Positions 25,705-56,654 of a stretch of DNA of 64,000 nucleotides are shown in pieces; the stretch's first letter is position 1; every line of letters begins with the position of its first letter. The position numbers were made by a program, and so were the translations under genes. Below the pieces are notes generated by a model that saw only the letters and a list, made by a program, of their open reading frames with translations, was not told the origin of the DNA and made no database searches. Source of the stretch: a virus (Duplodnaviria; Caudoviricetes); the IMG/VR virus record IMGVR_UViG_3300037878_000134, positions 16,139 to 80,138 of that record. One strand, given 5' to 3'.

Positions 25705-26099
25705 TTGCCAAAGCCTGCTCAGGGGGCCCTGCCTTGAGACGGACTCGACTGCTTGCCGAGCACGGCTCAGACCGCCTCACAACGCTTGCTCAGGGAGCTA
25801 CGCCTTGAGACATGCTGCCACATCCTGCAGCCATCCCGGCCCCGATGGGTCGCAACGCCCGCTCAGGGGGCCCTGCCTTGAGACGTACTGGACTGCTTGG
25901 CCAGCATGGCCCGGCCCGCACCACAAAGCCTGCTCAGGGGGCCATGTCTTGAGACACCGAATAGGTGATCTCGTGGTGCGCCGGATGGTCGCGCGCAACG
26001 CCCGCTCAGGGGGCCCTGCCTTGAGACAGTCGACCTGGCCGTCCATCATCGCAGCCGCGGCAGCTCCTAATGCCCGCTCAAGGGGCCACGCCTTGAGAT
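25705..26099 (+). CRISPR. CRISPR array B: 6 divergent 36-nt repeats, 5 spacers
   Basis: Repeats start at 25705, 25776, 25849, 25920, 25992 and 26064; core AA(A/C/T)GCYYGCTCARGG..CYTGAGAY; period 71-73 nt. Confidence 0.9.
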
Positions 26100-26346
26100 C
26101 CGCAGATGTGGCAGTGAGAGAGGCGGAGTTGAGTGCTGTTTTTCAGCACAAGATAAAGTGCATTCGGACTGCATTTGGTCAAATGCCGAAAATAGCACTC
26201 TACTTTCCTCTACAACTCCGCGAATTCATTGGGGCCAGCCGCGGATGGGGTCGCCGATGCGGTCCCGCACATCAACTGCGCAGGGGCGATGCAAGGCCCC
26301 CAATTCTTCGCCCGCTCGCCCGCGCGCTGGCTATCATCGACAGAAC

Positions 26347-26420
26347 TGCAGGGTCGCCAAGTGGACAAAGGCTCCAGGCTCATAACCTGGCATTCGTGGG
26401 TTCGACTCCTACCCCTGCAA
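26347..26420 (+). tRNA. tRNA with CAT anticodon (Met or Ile2), CCA not encoded
   Basis: Acceptor TGCAGGG/CCCTGCA, D stem GCC/GGC, anticodon arm CCAGG-CTCATAA-CCTGG, T arm GTGGG-TTCGACT-CCTAC. Confidence 0.9.
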
Positions 26421-26586
26421 CTGCCTTAACGCTCTCTTTCCTGGCTGGGGGAAGCGCAGGCAACAAAGGGCAACGGCTAGGTGGGGCTCCGCGGGGGCCT
26501 GAATGGTCCGCCCGCCCACATTGTGGAAAGTCCCTATCAGCGCTCCGGCCCGCGGCCGCCGCTGGGGGCAGCGAGAGCTCGTGGTC

Positions 26587-27372
26587 ATGAGACGCAACAT
26601 GTTCGAGCTTCTCCGCGATCGCTACCCGGCGCAGTCCTACGCGTTGTTTCGGGAGGTCCAATCTGCAACGGCCTACCAGGGCAGACAACGCGCCGACGCC
26701 GTGGCAATGGGTTTGTGGCCGTCCCGCGGGCTCGACATGATCGGCTTTGAATTCAAGGCCCATCGGGGGGACTGGCTGCGTGAGCTGGGGCATCCCAGGA
26801 AAGCAGAGGAGATCTTCCAGTATTGCGATCGTTGGTATCTCGTCGCGCACCCGGGCGTCGCCCAGGCTGCGGAGATTCCGACCACTTGGGGCTGGCTGAT
26901 TGCGGAAGAACGTCTGGAAGAGGCCAAGCAGGCTCCGCAGTTGCAGCCGAAACCGATCGGAAGAGAATTTCTGGCCTCCCTCTTGCGCTCAGCACAGACG
27001 GACCGCGATCGCCCAGCGAAAGAGATACGCCTCGCGCTAGCCGGTGAAATACGTCGAGAAGTGGCGGAGGAGTCAGAGAGGGTGCTCAACCAGCTTCGCG
27101 AGCAAATCACGACCGACGGCGAGCAACACCGCAAGCAGATCCAACACATCGAAAGCGCGCTCGGTGTGAGTCTTAGTGGCTGGAATCTCCCCGTAGAGAC
27201 GGTGGGCGCGGCGCTGGGCCTCGTGATGGATGACTCAGGTGGGCTGTTGCAACGTTTTTCCCGTGCAAAGGGCATAATCGCCGATTTGCTGACCAGCATC
27301 GAGGACGCGGAAACCGAGCTTGGCGGCCTCTGTAAAGCACAAGCGCGGCAAGGCGCCGAGGTAACACCATGA
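26587..27372 (+). CDS. MmcB-like PD-(D/E)XK endonuclease
   Basis: FREV...RADAVAMGLWPSRG...GFEFKAHRGDWLREL..P.KAEEIFQYCDRWYLV. Confidence 0.75.
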   Translation: MRRNMFELLRDRYPAQSYALFREVQSATAYQGRQRADAVAMGLWPSRGLDMIGFEFKAHRGDWLRELGHPRKAEEIFQYCDRWYLVAHPGVAQAAEIPTTWGWLIAEERLEEAKQAPQLQPKPIGREFLASLLRSAQTDRDRPAKEIRLALAGEIRREVAEESERVLNQLREQITTDGEQHRKQIQHIESALGVSLSGWNLPVETVGAALGLVMDDSGGLLQRFSRAKGIIADLLTSIEDAETELGGLCKAQARQGAEVTP

Positions 27373-27584
27373 AGTCCATCGTTTTCCTGCGGAGTCTCCT
27401 CCGGTTTCTCGCGGGCCTCCCCTGCCTCTTTGGCCGCCACCGCTGGACCGAGGCGTTCATGCTCGAGCGGCCCCACCTGGTCGTGCGCGCGTGCGAACAC
27501 TGTCCCCGCCACCAGCGCCGCGTCGGCGGCTGGTGGTGCCCGTGCGACGAGGGGGGCTCGTTCGTCCTGCAGCCGCAGAGGTAA
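27369..27584 (+). CDS. Small Cys/His-rich hypothetical protein
   Basis: ATGA overlap; CLFGRHRW...CEHC. Confidence 0.5.
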   Translation: MKSIVFLRSLLRFLAGLPCLFGRHRWTEAFMLERPHLVVRACEHCPRHQRRVGGWWCPCDEGGSFVLQPQR

Positions 27585-54190: not shown

Positions 54191-54374
54191 GATGCCGCCA
54201 TTCCAGCTCATCAAGAAGCTCTTCGTGCGGCAAGCACACGGACCGTCGCTCACCCGATTCGCGCTCATCTACGGCCTTGAGCGCCGGTGGTACGAGCGGA
54301 TCCCTTGGTTGGGCGATCGCTGGCTGCGACGCCGGACGCGCTGGGCAATGCGAAACGAGCAGGGGTAAGCAGTC

Positions 54375-55328
54375 GTGGCGGACAAGAAGATCTACGACGA
54401 AGTCATCGGGCAGCACCGGCGCACCCTCGACCGACTCATCGAGCGCGGCGCCGTGGAGCGCGTGCGCCGCGTGTACCAGCGCGCGACCGCGGAAGTCTTG
54501 AAGAAGCTGGCCAACATCGGGCCGCTCAAGAAGAGCCTTACCGAAATGCAGCTCCGGCAGATCCTGGCGCAGCTCATCTCCGGCCAGATCCACATCGCGG
54601 GGGAGATGGCCGCCACCCTGTCGAACGCCAGCCGGGAAGCTCAAATCGACTCGCTCCACAGCCTGCTGCGCGGCTACAAGAAGCTCGAACGCCACTTCAC
54701 CGGGAAAGCCCCCAGCTTACCCATCGAGGAAGCCGCCCGCTTTGCCGGCCTTATCGACAAGCGGCGAGGCTCGCTCTTGGAGCAGCACGAGAGCTCGATG
54801 CGGCGCTACGGCCGCATGGTGGTCGCAGAGATCAATATTGAGCTGAAGATTTCTTTGGCCGCCGGCGAGACCTTGGACGAGGCTCGCGACCGCGTCGACA
54901 AAGTCATCGACGGCGAGACCTGGCAAGCAGAGCGCATTGCTAGGACCGAAACATCGTGGGCGGCAAATATCACGCACGTCGACGGCATCAAGGAGATCGC
55001 GCAGGAAGTCCCCGACCTCTATCAGCAGTGGATCGAAAACTGCGACGCCTCCGGGCAGCCCAATGATCATCGCGTGGGCGTGGATTCTCTCGCGATGCAC
55101 TTGCAGTTGGCGAAGCCCGGCGGGATGTTCACGATGCCGGCGCACGCGCCGGTCCCGGACGCCGAGGGCAAGACCGAGGTGTCCAAGTCGCTGGTGGGCG
55201 AGTCCTGGGCGGCCCCCCCTTGCCGGCCGAACGGCCGCGAGACCGTGGCGCCTTGGCGCAGGGCCTGGGGCATGCCGGGCTGGGAATACCGGGATGGGCA
55301 ACGGCATTGGCTGGTGAGGCGCTCTTGA
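54375..55328 (+). CDS. Mu gpF-like head morphogenesis (minor capsid) protein
   Basis: AERIARTETSWA motif and C-terminal PPCRPNGRE; head-module context. Confidence 0.8.
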   Translation: MADKKIYDEVIGQHRRTLDRLIERGAVERVRRVYQRATAEVLKKLANIGPLKKSLTEMQLRQILAQLISGQIHIAGEMAATLSNASREAQIDSLHSLLRGYKKLERHFTGKAPSLPIEEAARFAGLIDKRRGSLLEQHESSMRRYGRMVVAEINIELKISLAAGETLDEARDRVDKVIDGETWQAERIARTETSWAANITHVDGIKEIAQEVPDLYQQWIENCDASGQPNDHRVGVDSLAMHLQLAKPGGMFTMPAHAPVPDAEGKTEVSKSLVGESWAAPPCRPNGRETVAPWRRAWGMPGWEYRDGQRHWLVRRS

Positions 55329-55654
55329 CCAAACGCGAAACCTTCGAACGCAGCCTGGCGGAATGCTACGAGGTCGTCGTGACACTCATCCCGACACCCC
55401 ACATCGAGTTACCGGCGGGAGCTTGGCGCCAAGGCCCCACGCCCGACTGTCTCTCGACGCTCTTTTCGGTCTTGATCTACGGACTGGACTTGCCCCAGCC
55501 TCTCTCAGATCTCGATGTCACCGACGAAGGTATCCGGGCCACCCTGTCATTCCGGGGCAAGCGCTCGCCGACGTTCGTTCCCTGGGCGTCCGTCATCGGG
55601 ATCATCGGCAAGGGACAGCGCCCGAAGCAAGGGGCGCAGCTCAGGAGCGTCTGA
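55325..55654 (+). CDS. SspB-like ClpXP adaptor
   Basis: YGLDLPQPLSDLDVTDEGIRATLSF.G....FVPWASVIGI core and C-terminal QLRSV (XB-like tail); TTG start overlaps the upstream stop. Confidence 0.75.
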   Translation: MTKRETFERSLAECYEVVVTLIPTPHIELPAGAWRQGPTPDCLSTLFSVLIYGLDLPQPLSDLDVTDEGIRATLSFRGKRSPTFVPWASVIGIIGKGQRPKQGAQLRSV

Positions 55655-55663
55655 TGCCTCACG

Positions 55664-56654
55664 ATTGCAACGCCTGCTCAAGGGGCCATGCCTTGAGACC
55701 TGACGATCGAGCGAGATCACCCCTTCAGGGTAGTCCGTCACAATGCCTGCTCAGGGGGCCGTGCCCTGAGACGACGACTCGTACGACTGTGCGAGGATCG
55801 GTCTGCGCCGGTCGCAACGCCTGCTCAGGGGGCCCTGCCTTGAGACAAGAAGTATCGAGCCTAAAAGCCTGCTCAGGGGGCCGTGCCTTGAGACGTCTTG
55901 TACGATTTTCGCCGCGGCCAGCAGTTCGGCCCTGGAAACGCCCGCTCAAGGGGCCATGCCTTGAGACAACGAAGCCGACAACTTCGTCGACTGCACCTAG
56001 GAGGAGCTCACAACGCCTGCTCAGGGGGCCGTGCCCTGAGACCTTCGGAGTACGTCCTCGGGCACCGGCTGACGCCGGTCGCAAAGCCTGCTCAGGAGGC
56101 CCTGCCTTGAGATGGGTCCACGGCTGCGCCGACCGCCACCTCGCGCACCAACCTCGAAACGCCTGCTCAGGGGGCCGTGCCCTGAGACCTACGCACACGC
56201 CCGCTCAGGGGGCCATGCCTTGAGACCCTCCGCCGACTCTCCTCGCAAAGCCTGCTCAAGGGGCCCTGCCTTGAGACCATTCGACTGCGGGAACCTGTCG
56301 ACGGTGGCCAGGGCTCACAACGCCCGCTCAGGGGGCCATGTCCTGAGACGCTACCCGAGGCGCTTGTACCGCGAGCGCAATTGCGGAAAAAAGAGCGCAA
56401 TTGCGCTCACAAAGCCTGCTCAAGGGGCCATGCCTTGAGACAGAGGCGCATGCGCAGCCGCGTTGCCTCTGGGGCCGCCTCGCAACGCCTGCTCAGGGGG
56501 CTGTGCCTTGAGACGGTTTGATCCCCAGCCCTCTTCTTGGGTCCGAGGTTGCAACGCCCGCTCAGGGGGCCATGCCCTGAGACGCCGCAGTCGTGGCTGC
56601 GCGGATGCAGTCCGCAGCCTCCCAACGCCCGCTCAAGAGGCTGTGTCTTGAGAC
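55664..56654 (+). CRISPR. CRISPR array D: 15 divergent repeats with irregular spacers
   Basis: Repeats start at 55664, 55737, 55811, 55859, 55932, 56007, 56078, 56153, 56191, 56242, 56314, 56406, 56479, 56548 and 56619. Confidence 0.92.

Follow-up and report, generated by a model that had tools for sequence, protein, structure and literature searches.

Four CRISPR arrays of one repeat family in a complete phage genome encoding a single Cas12m

Described Cas12m systems and virus-borne arrays

Described type V-M CRISPR systems, such as those of MmCas12m, GoCas12m, MsCas12m and Cas12m2 (PDB 23vw, 8hhl and 8hio), combine a compact effector with 36-nt repeats and spacers of about 35 nt, have neither adaptation genes nor an anti-repeat, and occupy mobile-element loci, mostly on plasmids, with one array adjacent to the effector gene. 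Published Cas12m proteins process their own pre-crRNA without a tracrRNA, bind DNA without cutting it and block phages as well as plasmids, and the published variants with a D-E-D triad are likewise non-cutting (PMC11013384). The presence of type V-M systems in prophages was mentioned in a 2024 review (PMC11656645), and a Cas12m locus of the MV-1 myxophage was reported in a 2026 bioRxiv preprint (10.64898/2026.09.14.751636). Viruses also carry mini-arrays and single repeat units, which copy host repeats, borrow the host Cas proteins and often have spacers aimed at related viruses (PMC11656645; PMC10120712). Huge phages have compact CRISPR arrays of their own that lack adaptation genes, found mostly in genomes larger than 200 kb and with other effector types, whose spacers are directed against structural genes of other phages (PMC7162821).

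The phage considered here (IMG/VR record IMGVR_UViG_3300037878_000134; Duplodnaviria, Caudoviricetes) has a genome of 80,138 bp with direct terminal repeats of 128 bp, rated 100% complete by CheckV. The window is the stretch of 64,000 nucleotides covering positions 16,139 to 80,138 of this record, and coordinates refer to it unless the genome is named. The phage shares with the described V-M systems a homologous, compact effector, the lengths of repeats and spacers, the lack of adaptation genes and of an anti-repeat, and the setting on a mobile element, and differs from them in its four arrays, in its setting in a phage genome and in the diversified repeats of the distal arrays. With MV-1 it has in common a complete IMG/VR phage genome, a similarly sized Cas12m whose D-E-D triad is intact, the lack of adaptation genes and spacers without matches; however, the MV-1 protein has 610 aa and another spacing of the catalytic residues, and its single adjacent array has eight spacers, with no distal arrays described. 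One of the arrays, array C, equals a viral mini-array in size, whereas the phage brings its own effector and has extra loci of 6 and 15 repeats; the core of its repeat is absent from other IMG/VR contigs. The compact, adaptation-less arrays of huge phages are similar in kind, but the spread of one repeat family across gene modules is not described for them in the part of that report available (PMC7162821).

Taken together, we give a probability of roughly 60% to the reading that a complete 80-kb integrase-encoding phage carries a type V-M CRISPR-Cas12m system lacking adaptation genes, with a guide repertoire that is split over four arrays and used for DNA binding without cutting against competitors.

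The effector and the four arrays

The effector gene, its upstream partner and the adjacent array lie in a DNA-modification gene cluster:

34729-35886, + strand: DUF5131 gene (Pfam DUF5131, E 4e-57), translationally coupled to cas12m
35883-37700, + strand: cas12m, 605 aa, the sole effector of the genome
37668-38687, + strand: array A, 15 repeats and 14 spacers, found by fuzzy search and covariance model

Residues 99-643 of the long ORF match a Cas12m structure (PDB 23vw_A, E 1.8e-70), the second PDB match being Cas12m2 (8hhl, E 4e-23; both by phmmer), and Pfam identifies a Cas12f1-like TNB domain (PF07282). D299, E452 and D543, together with four cysteines, are kept in an alignment of 34 Cas12m sequences, leaving the D-E-D triad of the phage protein intact. 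A search of the genome for the effector gave a single match, which, with the homology to Cas12m, bears out an earlier statement that one type V-M effector is present. The cas12m start codon follows a ribosome-binding site and has a 4-nt overlap with the stop codon of the DUF5131 gene, and the same gene pair is present in relatives. Neither Cas1 (PF01867) nor Cas2 (PF09827) was found at E<=0.1 in the whole complete genome, nor was an anti-repeat, as no reverse-complement match to the repeat exceeds 9 nt anywhere in it; with Cas12m as the only effector, the system is therefore assigned to type V-M.

The preliminary description, made from the window by a model, had reported 38 repeats of one family in four co-oriented loci. 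A fuzzy search and a covariance model, the latter applied unfiltered to both strands of the complete genome, agree on exactly this number of 36-nt repeats, all on the + strand and divided as described (B 6, A 15, C 2, D 15). Their covariance-model scores range from 43.7 to 60.6 bits against 12.7 bits for the next-best match, the 16 kb of genome beyond the window are free of repeats, and the covariance-model scan of the whole genome found no solitary copies. The array positions given there proved correct. B follows the tyrosine integrase, C precedes the large terminase gene and D lies in the head cluster; A alone touches the cas gene, the stop codon of cas12m (37698-37700) falling within its first repeat. 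Over all arrays, 29 of the 34 intervals are of spacer length (33-39 nt), and no ORF with a coding signature runs over any array. An assembly chimera, which had been named as a potential source of the pattern, is unlikely given the terminal repeat, the full completeness, the 23 distinct distal repeats and the recurrence of the junction between cas12m and array A in the independent sample L002. The layout, with one effector and four arrays up to 18 kb apart, is real and unusual.

Array A is the only array with young, identical repeats: nine share one sequence, and of the six variants three lie at the far end. It extends from within cas12m to about 30 nt short of the next ORF (38716-40341), and an array beside the effector gene is also present in L002 and in most of 45 viral loci. 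The Cas12m of L002 is 92% identical, and of the array A spacers only the last recurs there, those near cas12m being different; apart from this common spacer, comparison of the array spacers with 136 loci gave nothing. The L002 comparison fits growth of array A at its cas-proximal end. Recent turnover is seen at array A only, and only here did a relative allow turnover to be compared.

The other three arrays and their neighbours are the following:

23902-25518, + strand: tyrosine integrase region (Pfam Phage_integrase, E 2e-11), upstream of array B
25705-26099, + strand: array B, 6 variant repeats and 5 spacers of 35-37 nt
26347-26421, + strand: tRNA-Met (CAT), found by ARAGORN and Rfam, downstream of array B
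44286-44393, + strand: array C, 2 variant repeats and one 36-nt spacer
44498-44527: promoter-like site downstream of array C
44541-44807: weak HTH gene downstream of array C
47076-48596, + strand: large terminase gene (PHROG 38, E 3e-52), marking the packaging/late module between arrays C and D
54375-55328, + strand: head-morphogenesis (minor head) gene (PHROG 859, 115 and 2468), upstream of array D
55664-56654, + strand: array D, 15 variant repeats and 14 intervals

The tyrosine integrase region contains an internal duplication (families D7 and D8). Spacers 1 and 3 of array B are 77% alike. In the gene map of the 92% relative, a 45-kb contig of JGI sample 3300069122, the region of array B is about 985 bp shorter, and judged by this map alone both the array and the tRNA gene appear to be missing there. 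Array C begins 40 nt past the stop codon of ORF 44010-44246 and is also followed by a ParB-methyltransferase gene and the large terminase gene, for which the close IMG/VR relatives comprise one 6-kb contig only, without arrays. Array D, in which ten intervals measure 33-39 nt and the others 2, 12, 15 and 56 nt, lies between the head-morphogenesis gene and the major-capsid region. There it is packed between ORF 55220-55654 and ORF 56687-56965, beginning 9 nt after the stop of the former and ending 32 nt before the start of the latter. In related phages, with synteny checked through head-morphogenesis homologues, this position holds other accessory DNA and is a general hot spot for it; the placement of array D may hence reflect tolerated insertion rather than design.

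Constraint on the distal repeats and spacer targets

All 23 repeats of arrays B, C and D differ in sequence, so that standard CRISPR finders would miss the distal arrays. Their 98 differences are confined to 19 positions, leaving 17 of the 36 positions invariant where 2.3 would be expected by chance (P<5e-5). Towards its 3' end the repeat is both conserved and structured, with a pseudoknot handle composed of a 3-bp and a 7-bp helix and followed by the fixed 3' end. Pairing in the pseudoknot holds in 99.3% of cells, and four pairs are changed on both sides; none of 500 shuffles matches this result, and slid controls pair in 24-58% of cells. Position-specific invariance and compensatory pairing in both helices indicate that the distal arrays are constrained and maintained, not decaying. 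B, C and D appear to be older satellite arrays, with mutually diverged repeats in which the part forming the crRNA handle has been kept.

Among the spacers, the following gave a match:

37987-38021, + strand: spacer 5 of array A, agreeing in 34 of 35 bases with positions 15320-15353 of the genome (same strand)

The match lies in the variable C-terminal part of a tail-fibre-like gene (ORF L003:13890-15569), the kind of target expected when close relatives compete. It may not be an active target, since its 5' flank is non-pyrimidine and its single mismatch falls at position 1, beside the repeat. With this exception, which falls inside a coding region, blastn-short of the spacers against the phage's own genome returned only chance-level partial matches; regulatory cr-like RNAs, by comparison, come from mini-arrays with partial, seed-side complementarity to a promoter of their own element. 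The preliminary description had envisaged the silencing of host defence genes or competing elements; targeting of defence genes finds no support. The one target identified for any spacer is that of A5, in the tail-fibre-like gene of the phage itself. For arrays B, C and D, searches of INPHARED, PLSDB, IMG/VR and JGI metagenomes yielded no spacer target. Arrays A, B and D had no match among PLSDB plasmids, neither spacer 1 of A nor the single spacer of C had an exact match in IMG/VR, and two JGI metagenome scans, with a wobble-tolerant version of the self-target and with a consensus of the two similar B spacers, found nothing. A glycine-rich Gordonia phage tail gene, the only match when all four arrays were compared with INPHARED, was rejected as chance-level (E 0.09). 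An apparent common motif near the 5' ends of several spacers was likewise set aside as not significant, since 182 of 500 shuffles reach the same.

The tail-fibre-like protein has one match in Polyangia, which is a hint only with regard to the host. An IS1595 transposase did not reveal the host: its best matches, at 56-67% identity, come mostly from Alphaproteobacteria, with others from Verrucomicrobiota, Betaproteobacteria, Acidobacteriota and Polyangiaceae.

Possible roles of the dispersed arrays

In the mechanism considered most likely, the arrays would be transcribed by read-through from neighbouring genes, and the single Cas12m would cut the transcripts within the repeats, by analogy with published Cas12m proteins. 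The guides would then direct DNA binding without cutting, which would silence mobile elements in competition with the phage, mainly its near relatives. Transcription and processing of crRNAs, their loading onto Cas12m and their targets are all predicted here. Read-through is likely, since every array sits in a short space between genes of the + strand. Regarding the earlier proposal that the arrays belong to separate transcription units, their location in separate gene clusters and their tight packing stand, and transcription with the neighbouring genes is plausible.

The same layout has led to the suggestion of a timed silencing programme, in which one guide set would be made in lysogeny, another during early replication and another late in infection. 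The four settings (post-integrase, in the DNA-modification cluster with cas12m, before a promoter-like site at the packaging boundary, and among head genes) and the likelihood of read-through agree with such programming. However, counts of consensus promoters and terminators are near the shuffled expectation, the one Cas12m needed for all guides is made from the operon of array A, and the position of array D is a generic accessory hot spot, and we consider this programme unlikely. The repeats might instead act mainly on the phage's own mRNA, with Cas12m cutting or holding handles in polycistronic transcripts and thereby punctuating operons or controlling the following gene. The last repeats of A and D do end about 30 nt ahead of the next start codon, and a complete Cas12m phage of 94.5 kb (G004) has single repeats and mini-arrays between cistrons at six or seven loci. 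In five of them the repeat direction is that of the clearly dominant local coding strand, the rest having about equal strands. Scattered single repeats are also found in two further viral genomes (G001 and G003). In the present genome, by contrast, no repeat is solitary, and all extra copies are in arrays with unique intervals of spacer length, which processing sites would not need. A role mainly in acting on mRNA seems quite unlikely.

A different explanation sees in B, C and D the inert leftovers of older arrays, surviving where extra DNA is tolerated. The divergence of every distal repeat, the broken intervals of array D, the seeming lack of array B in the close relative, the variability of the D position among relatives and the failure to find targets for the spacers of B, C and D are what it would lead one to expect. 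It is nonetheless decidedly improbable, because neutral decay would not be expected to leave 17 positions invariant or to produce compensatory changes in both helices, and all 38 copies score at least 43.7 bits against the structure model. Finally, the distal repeats could be RNA decoys (anti-CRISPR RNAs) tying up the Cas12m of the host or of a competitor, a role known for viral single repeat units in other CRISPR types (PMC11656645). This is extremely improbable, given that the distal loci are regular arrays and not single units, and that decoys would poison the phage's own system, as it encodes a matching Cas12m.

Beyond the reading of split guide arrays used against competitors, we offer a tentative suggestion, with the odds against it: that repeat handles throughout the genome form a built-in control layer of phage Cas12m systems, in which guide supply, and perhaps the cutting of the phage's own polycistronic mRNA, would be tied to the stage of infection through co-transcription of the four arrays with separate gene modules. 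To the author of the preliminary description, no multi-locus phage V-M system was known. Four arrays for one effector are indeed unusual, but V-M systems of phages and prophages have already been reported, and dispersed repeats of the same family occur in three other Cas12m viral genomes checked (G001, G003 and G004).

The 30 distinct natural repeat variants, 23 distal and 7 in array A, constitute a mutational map of the handle positions which Cas12m tolerates. Cas12m, which naturally silences genes by binding DNA and not by cutting it, is under development as a compact tool. The presence of four structurally intact arrays for one Cas12m, one of them within the head-gene operon, suggests that phages use such silencers beyond a single adjacent array, and as the same theme recurs in other Cas12m phages, a general function may be involved.

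The repeat family and its four arrays

The 38 repeats in four co-oriented loci given in the preliminary description were confirmed by a fuzzy search, which placed every 36-nt copy on the + strand, and by a covariance model made from the repeats and run unfiltered on both strands of the whole genome. The model recovered the same 38 sites at 43.7-60.6 bits, with the next match at 12.7 bits, and because of this agreement and wide score gap the count and coordinates can be taken as exact. No hidden solitary repeats were detected by the model on either strand of the genome, the first 16 kb of which contain no repeats.

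Repeat arrays in the window
25705-26099, +, array B, 6 repeats
37668-38687, +, array A, 15 repeats
44286-44393, +, array C, 2 repeats
55664-56654, +, array D, 15 repeats

Array A comprises nine identical and six variant repeats, while the 23 repeats of the distal arrays B, C and D are all mutually different. Their 98 differences from the consensus are confined to 19 positions, namely 1-5, 8 and 12, those of the loop and paired positions of the stem; 17 positions are invariant against 2.3 expected at random, and none of 20,000 simulations reached 17. The predicted pseudoknot, which joins columns 9-11 to 21-23 and columns 14-20 to 28-34, was assessed on an alignment of 42 repeats drawn from this phage and from three relatives. 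Pairing was found in 99.3% of the cells, with four pairs altered on both sides; none of 500 shuffles matched the observed pairing, and slid partners paired in only 24-58%. Judged from the sequences, this pattern bears the mark of a crRNA handle under selection and not of a decaying one.

Most inter-repeat intervals (29 of 34) measure 33-39 nt. The exceptions are one of 21 nt in array A and four in array D (2, 12, 15 and 56 nt), the latter indicating some damage or rearrangement of D. The 56-nt interval (56350-56405) carries two copies of a palindromic 13-mer with an A-run between them, and resembles a terminator hairpin when read on the - strand.

Effector, gene map and array placement

The record bears a 128-bp direct terminal repeat, is classed as complete by IMG/VR and CheckV, and has a G+C content of 64%, with nearly all ORFs of coding signature on the + strand.

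Source record and genes
Source: a single viral record of 80,138 bp, the window being bases 16139-80138
16.9-21.4 kb, recombination genes
22329-23369, IS1595 transposase, just upstream of the integrase region
23902-25518, tyrosine integrase region
26347-26421, tRNA-Met
Early cluster: T5orf172/MUG113 protein, AAA ATPase and two adenine methyltransferases
DUF5131 gene, directly before the effector gene
35883-37700, +, cas12m
45.6-50.3 kb, ParB-methyltransferase, large terminase and portal
54375-55328, head-morphogenesis protein
61391-62791, weak major-head match

Within the long ORF 35625-37700, the most likely start of the effector is the ATG at position 35883, which is preceded by a ribosome-binding site and overlaps the DUF5131 stop codon by 4 nt, giving a protein of 605 aa. 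It matches a solved Cas12m (E 1.8e-70) and Cas12m2 (E 4e-23), contains a Cas12f1-like TNB domain, and retains D299, E452, D543 and four cysteines conserved in an alignment of 34 sequences. The intact D-E-D triad does not imply cutting, since published Cas12m proteins with D-E-D, H-D-D or N-D-D residues all bind without cleaving; these published proteins also process their own pre-crRNA independently of RuvC and do not require a tracrRNA (PMC11013384). The gene is the only one of its kind in the genome, where neither Cas1, Cas2 nor an anti-repeat longer than 9 nt was found. The system and its architecture were read correctly in the earlier proposal, and the type V-M assignment stands.

No ORF of coding signature runs over any of the arrays. 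Array A starts within the last cas12m codons, and about 30 nt separate its end from the next ORF, which encodes a DUF3850/ASCH protein. Array D starts 9 nt past the stop of ORF 55220-55654, with 32 nt left between its end and the ATG at 56687. Array C starts 40 nt past the stop of ORF 44010-44246, and array B lies between the integrase and the tRNA, 187 nt from the stop codon of the former and 248 nt from the latter. Promoter-like and terminator-like sites are about as numerous as in shuffled sequence, so that transcription units cannot be drawn from the sequence; read-through of the arrays is the simplest expectation that we infer from their co-orientation and tight packing. Delivery of guides timed to stages of the phage cycle, as previously proposed, goes beyond the evidence.

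The best promoter-like site of the array C region (44498-44527, 10 of 12 matches) lies about 100 nt downstream of C, before a small, weak HTH gene at 44541, with one copy of a direct repeat (about 17 nt) on either side of it (44440-44540). As the start codon of this gene follows the -10 element by about 13 nt, its transcript may lack a leader and be self-regulated. The small gene after array D is followed by three perfect tandem copies of a 12-nt unit (57018-57055), beyond which lies a promoter-like site (57328-57355). The integrase region 23902-25518 contains an internal duplication (24013-24367 and 24882-25239, 74-80% identity), as if a short first copy preceded the full integrase. Within the T5orf172/MUG113 ORF, three tandem 45-nt units with inverted short motifs (28213-28347) could be iterons or operator sites instead of coding repeats.

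Array turnover and spacer targets

The Cas12m family is large. In a related 6-kb contig (L002), the Cas12m is 92% identical and the order DUF5131, cas12m, array is kept; its array has eight repeats and seven spacers, of which only the last, together with the flank beyond, is common to array A. Such a pattern is classical for an array that grows at its cas-proximal end, and the distribution of repeats in A, identical at that end and variant at the far one, fits it. On a 45-kb contig from a second sample, encoding a Cas12m identical to that of L002, only 1,086 bp separate the integrase stop from the MUG113 gene, compared with 2,073 bp in the present phage; this gene-map comparison suggests the absence of array B and the tRNA from that contig. 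The head-morphogenesis protein has homologues (55-66% identity) on contigs of about 73-79 kb, none of which has an array at position D; other accessory genes or non-coding DNA occur there instead, so that accessory DNA in general seems to be drawn to this hot spot.

Within array A, spacer 5 (37987-38021) matches genome positions 15320-15353 on the same strand in 34 of 35 bases; the sole mismatched base, position 1, adjoins the repeat, and the 5' flank is not rich in pyrimidines. The site falls within an ORF at genome coordinates 13890-15569 (L003, the whole genome), just after a baseplate-wedge gene. Homologues of this ORF have the N-terminal 47% in common (about 75% identity), followed by unrelated C-terminal parts, some with Kelch repeats. 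Tail fibres and receptor-binding proteins typically keep the N-terminus and exchange the C-terminus in this way, and the product resembles a receptor-binding protein of the tail. It is the variable C-terminal part that holds the match, and the source of the spacer was probably either the phage itself or a near-identical competitor. All other spacers lack a match in their own genome and, apart from the one shared with L002, in the fetched loci, and no spacer targets were found in cultured phages, plasmids, IMG/VR or JGI metagenomes. The suggestion that host defence genes are targeted exceeds the evidence, the only target found being the phage's own tail-fibre-like gene. The 77% resemblance between spacers 1 and 3 of array B is compatible with an internal duplication as well as with two versions of a single target.

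Dispersed repeats in Cas12m viruses

Type V-M systems are enriched on plasmids and also occur in some prophages (2024 review, PMC11656645). A Cas12m in a complete myxophage genome has one adjacent array of eight spacers with no targets (September 2026 preprint, bioRxiv 10.64898/2026.09.14.751636); that protein and ours differ in length, and their catalytic residues are spaced differently. Host Cas proteins are needed by the known viral mini-arrays, single repeat units and regulatory cr-like RNAs (PMC11656645 among the sources). The searchable literature yielded no account of a single phage Cas12m that serves multiple dispersed arrays.

An alignment-based scan of IMG/VR viral contigs recovered Cas12m relatives at 45 loci, most with an array right after the gene. 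Repeats of the same family were counted in five records by whole-record scans.

Repeat loci in other Cas12m viral records
G001, 43 kb, partial: at least 7 loci, on both strands
G004, 94.5 kb, complete: 6 loci by pattern scan and one more by a looser search
G003, 245 kb, complete: 3 loci
G005, 47 kb, 87% complete: 1 locus
G006, 81.5 kb, complete: 1 locus

In G004, the copies occupy short intergenic gaps, and the repeat follows a clearly dominant local coding strand at five loci, the strands being about equal at the rest. Unlike in the other scanned viruses, every extra copy in the present phage lies in true arrays with unique, spacer-length intervals. Two further features were observed in these records. 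A repeat in G001 (L142, about 11145-11200) is immediately followed by an inverted copy of its 3' half, and the two together would fold into a long hairpin or make up an anti-repeat-like element. In G004 (L137), a main-array spacer at 4283 matches a site about 1.7 kb off (2507-2525) in 18 of 19 repeat-proximal bases (E 0.002), which could be regulatory or due to chance.

The reading put forward here is that of a phage type V-M system in which one growing array (A) would be accompanied by three maintained satellite arrays (B, C and D), all four probably feeding the single Cas12m. A live alternative is that the embedded handles take part in processing messages of this phage itself. The V-M system would most likely be used against close competitors.
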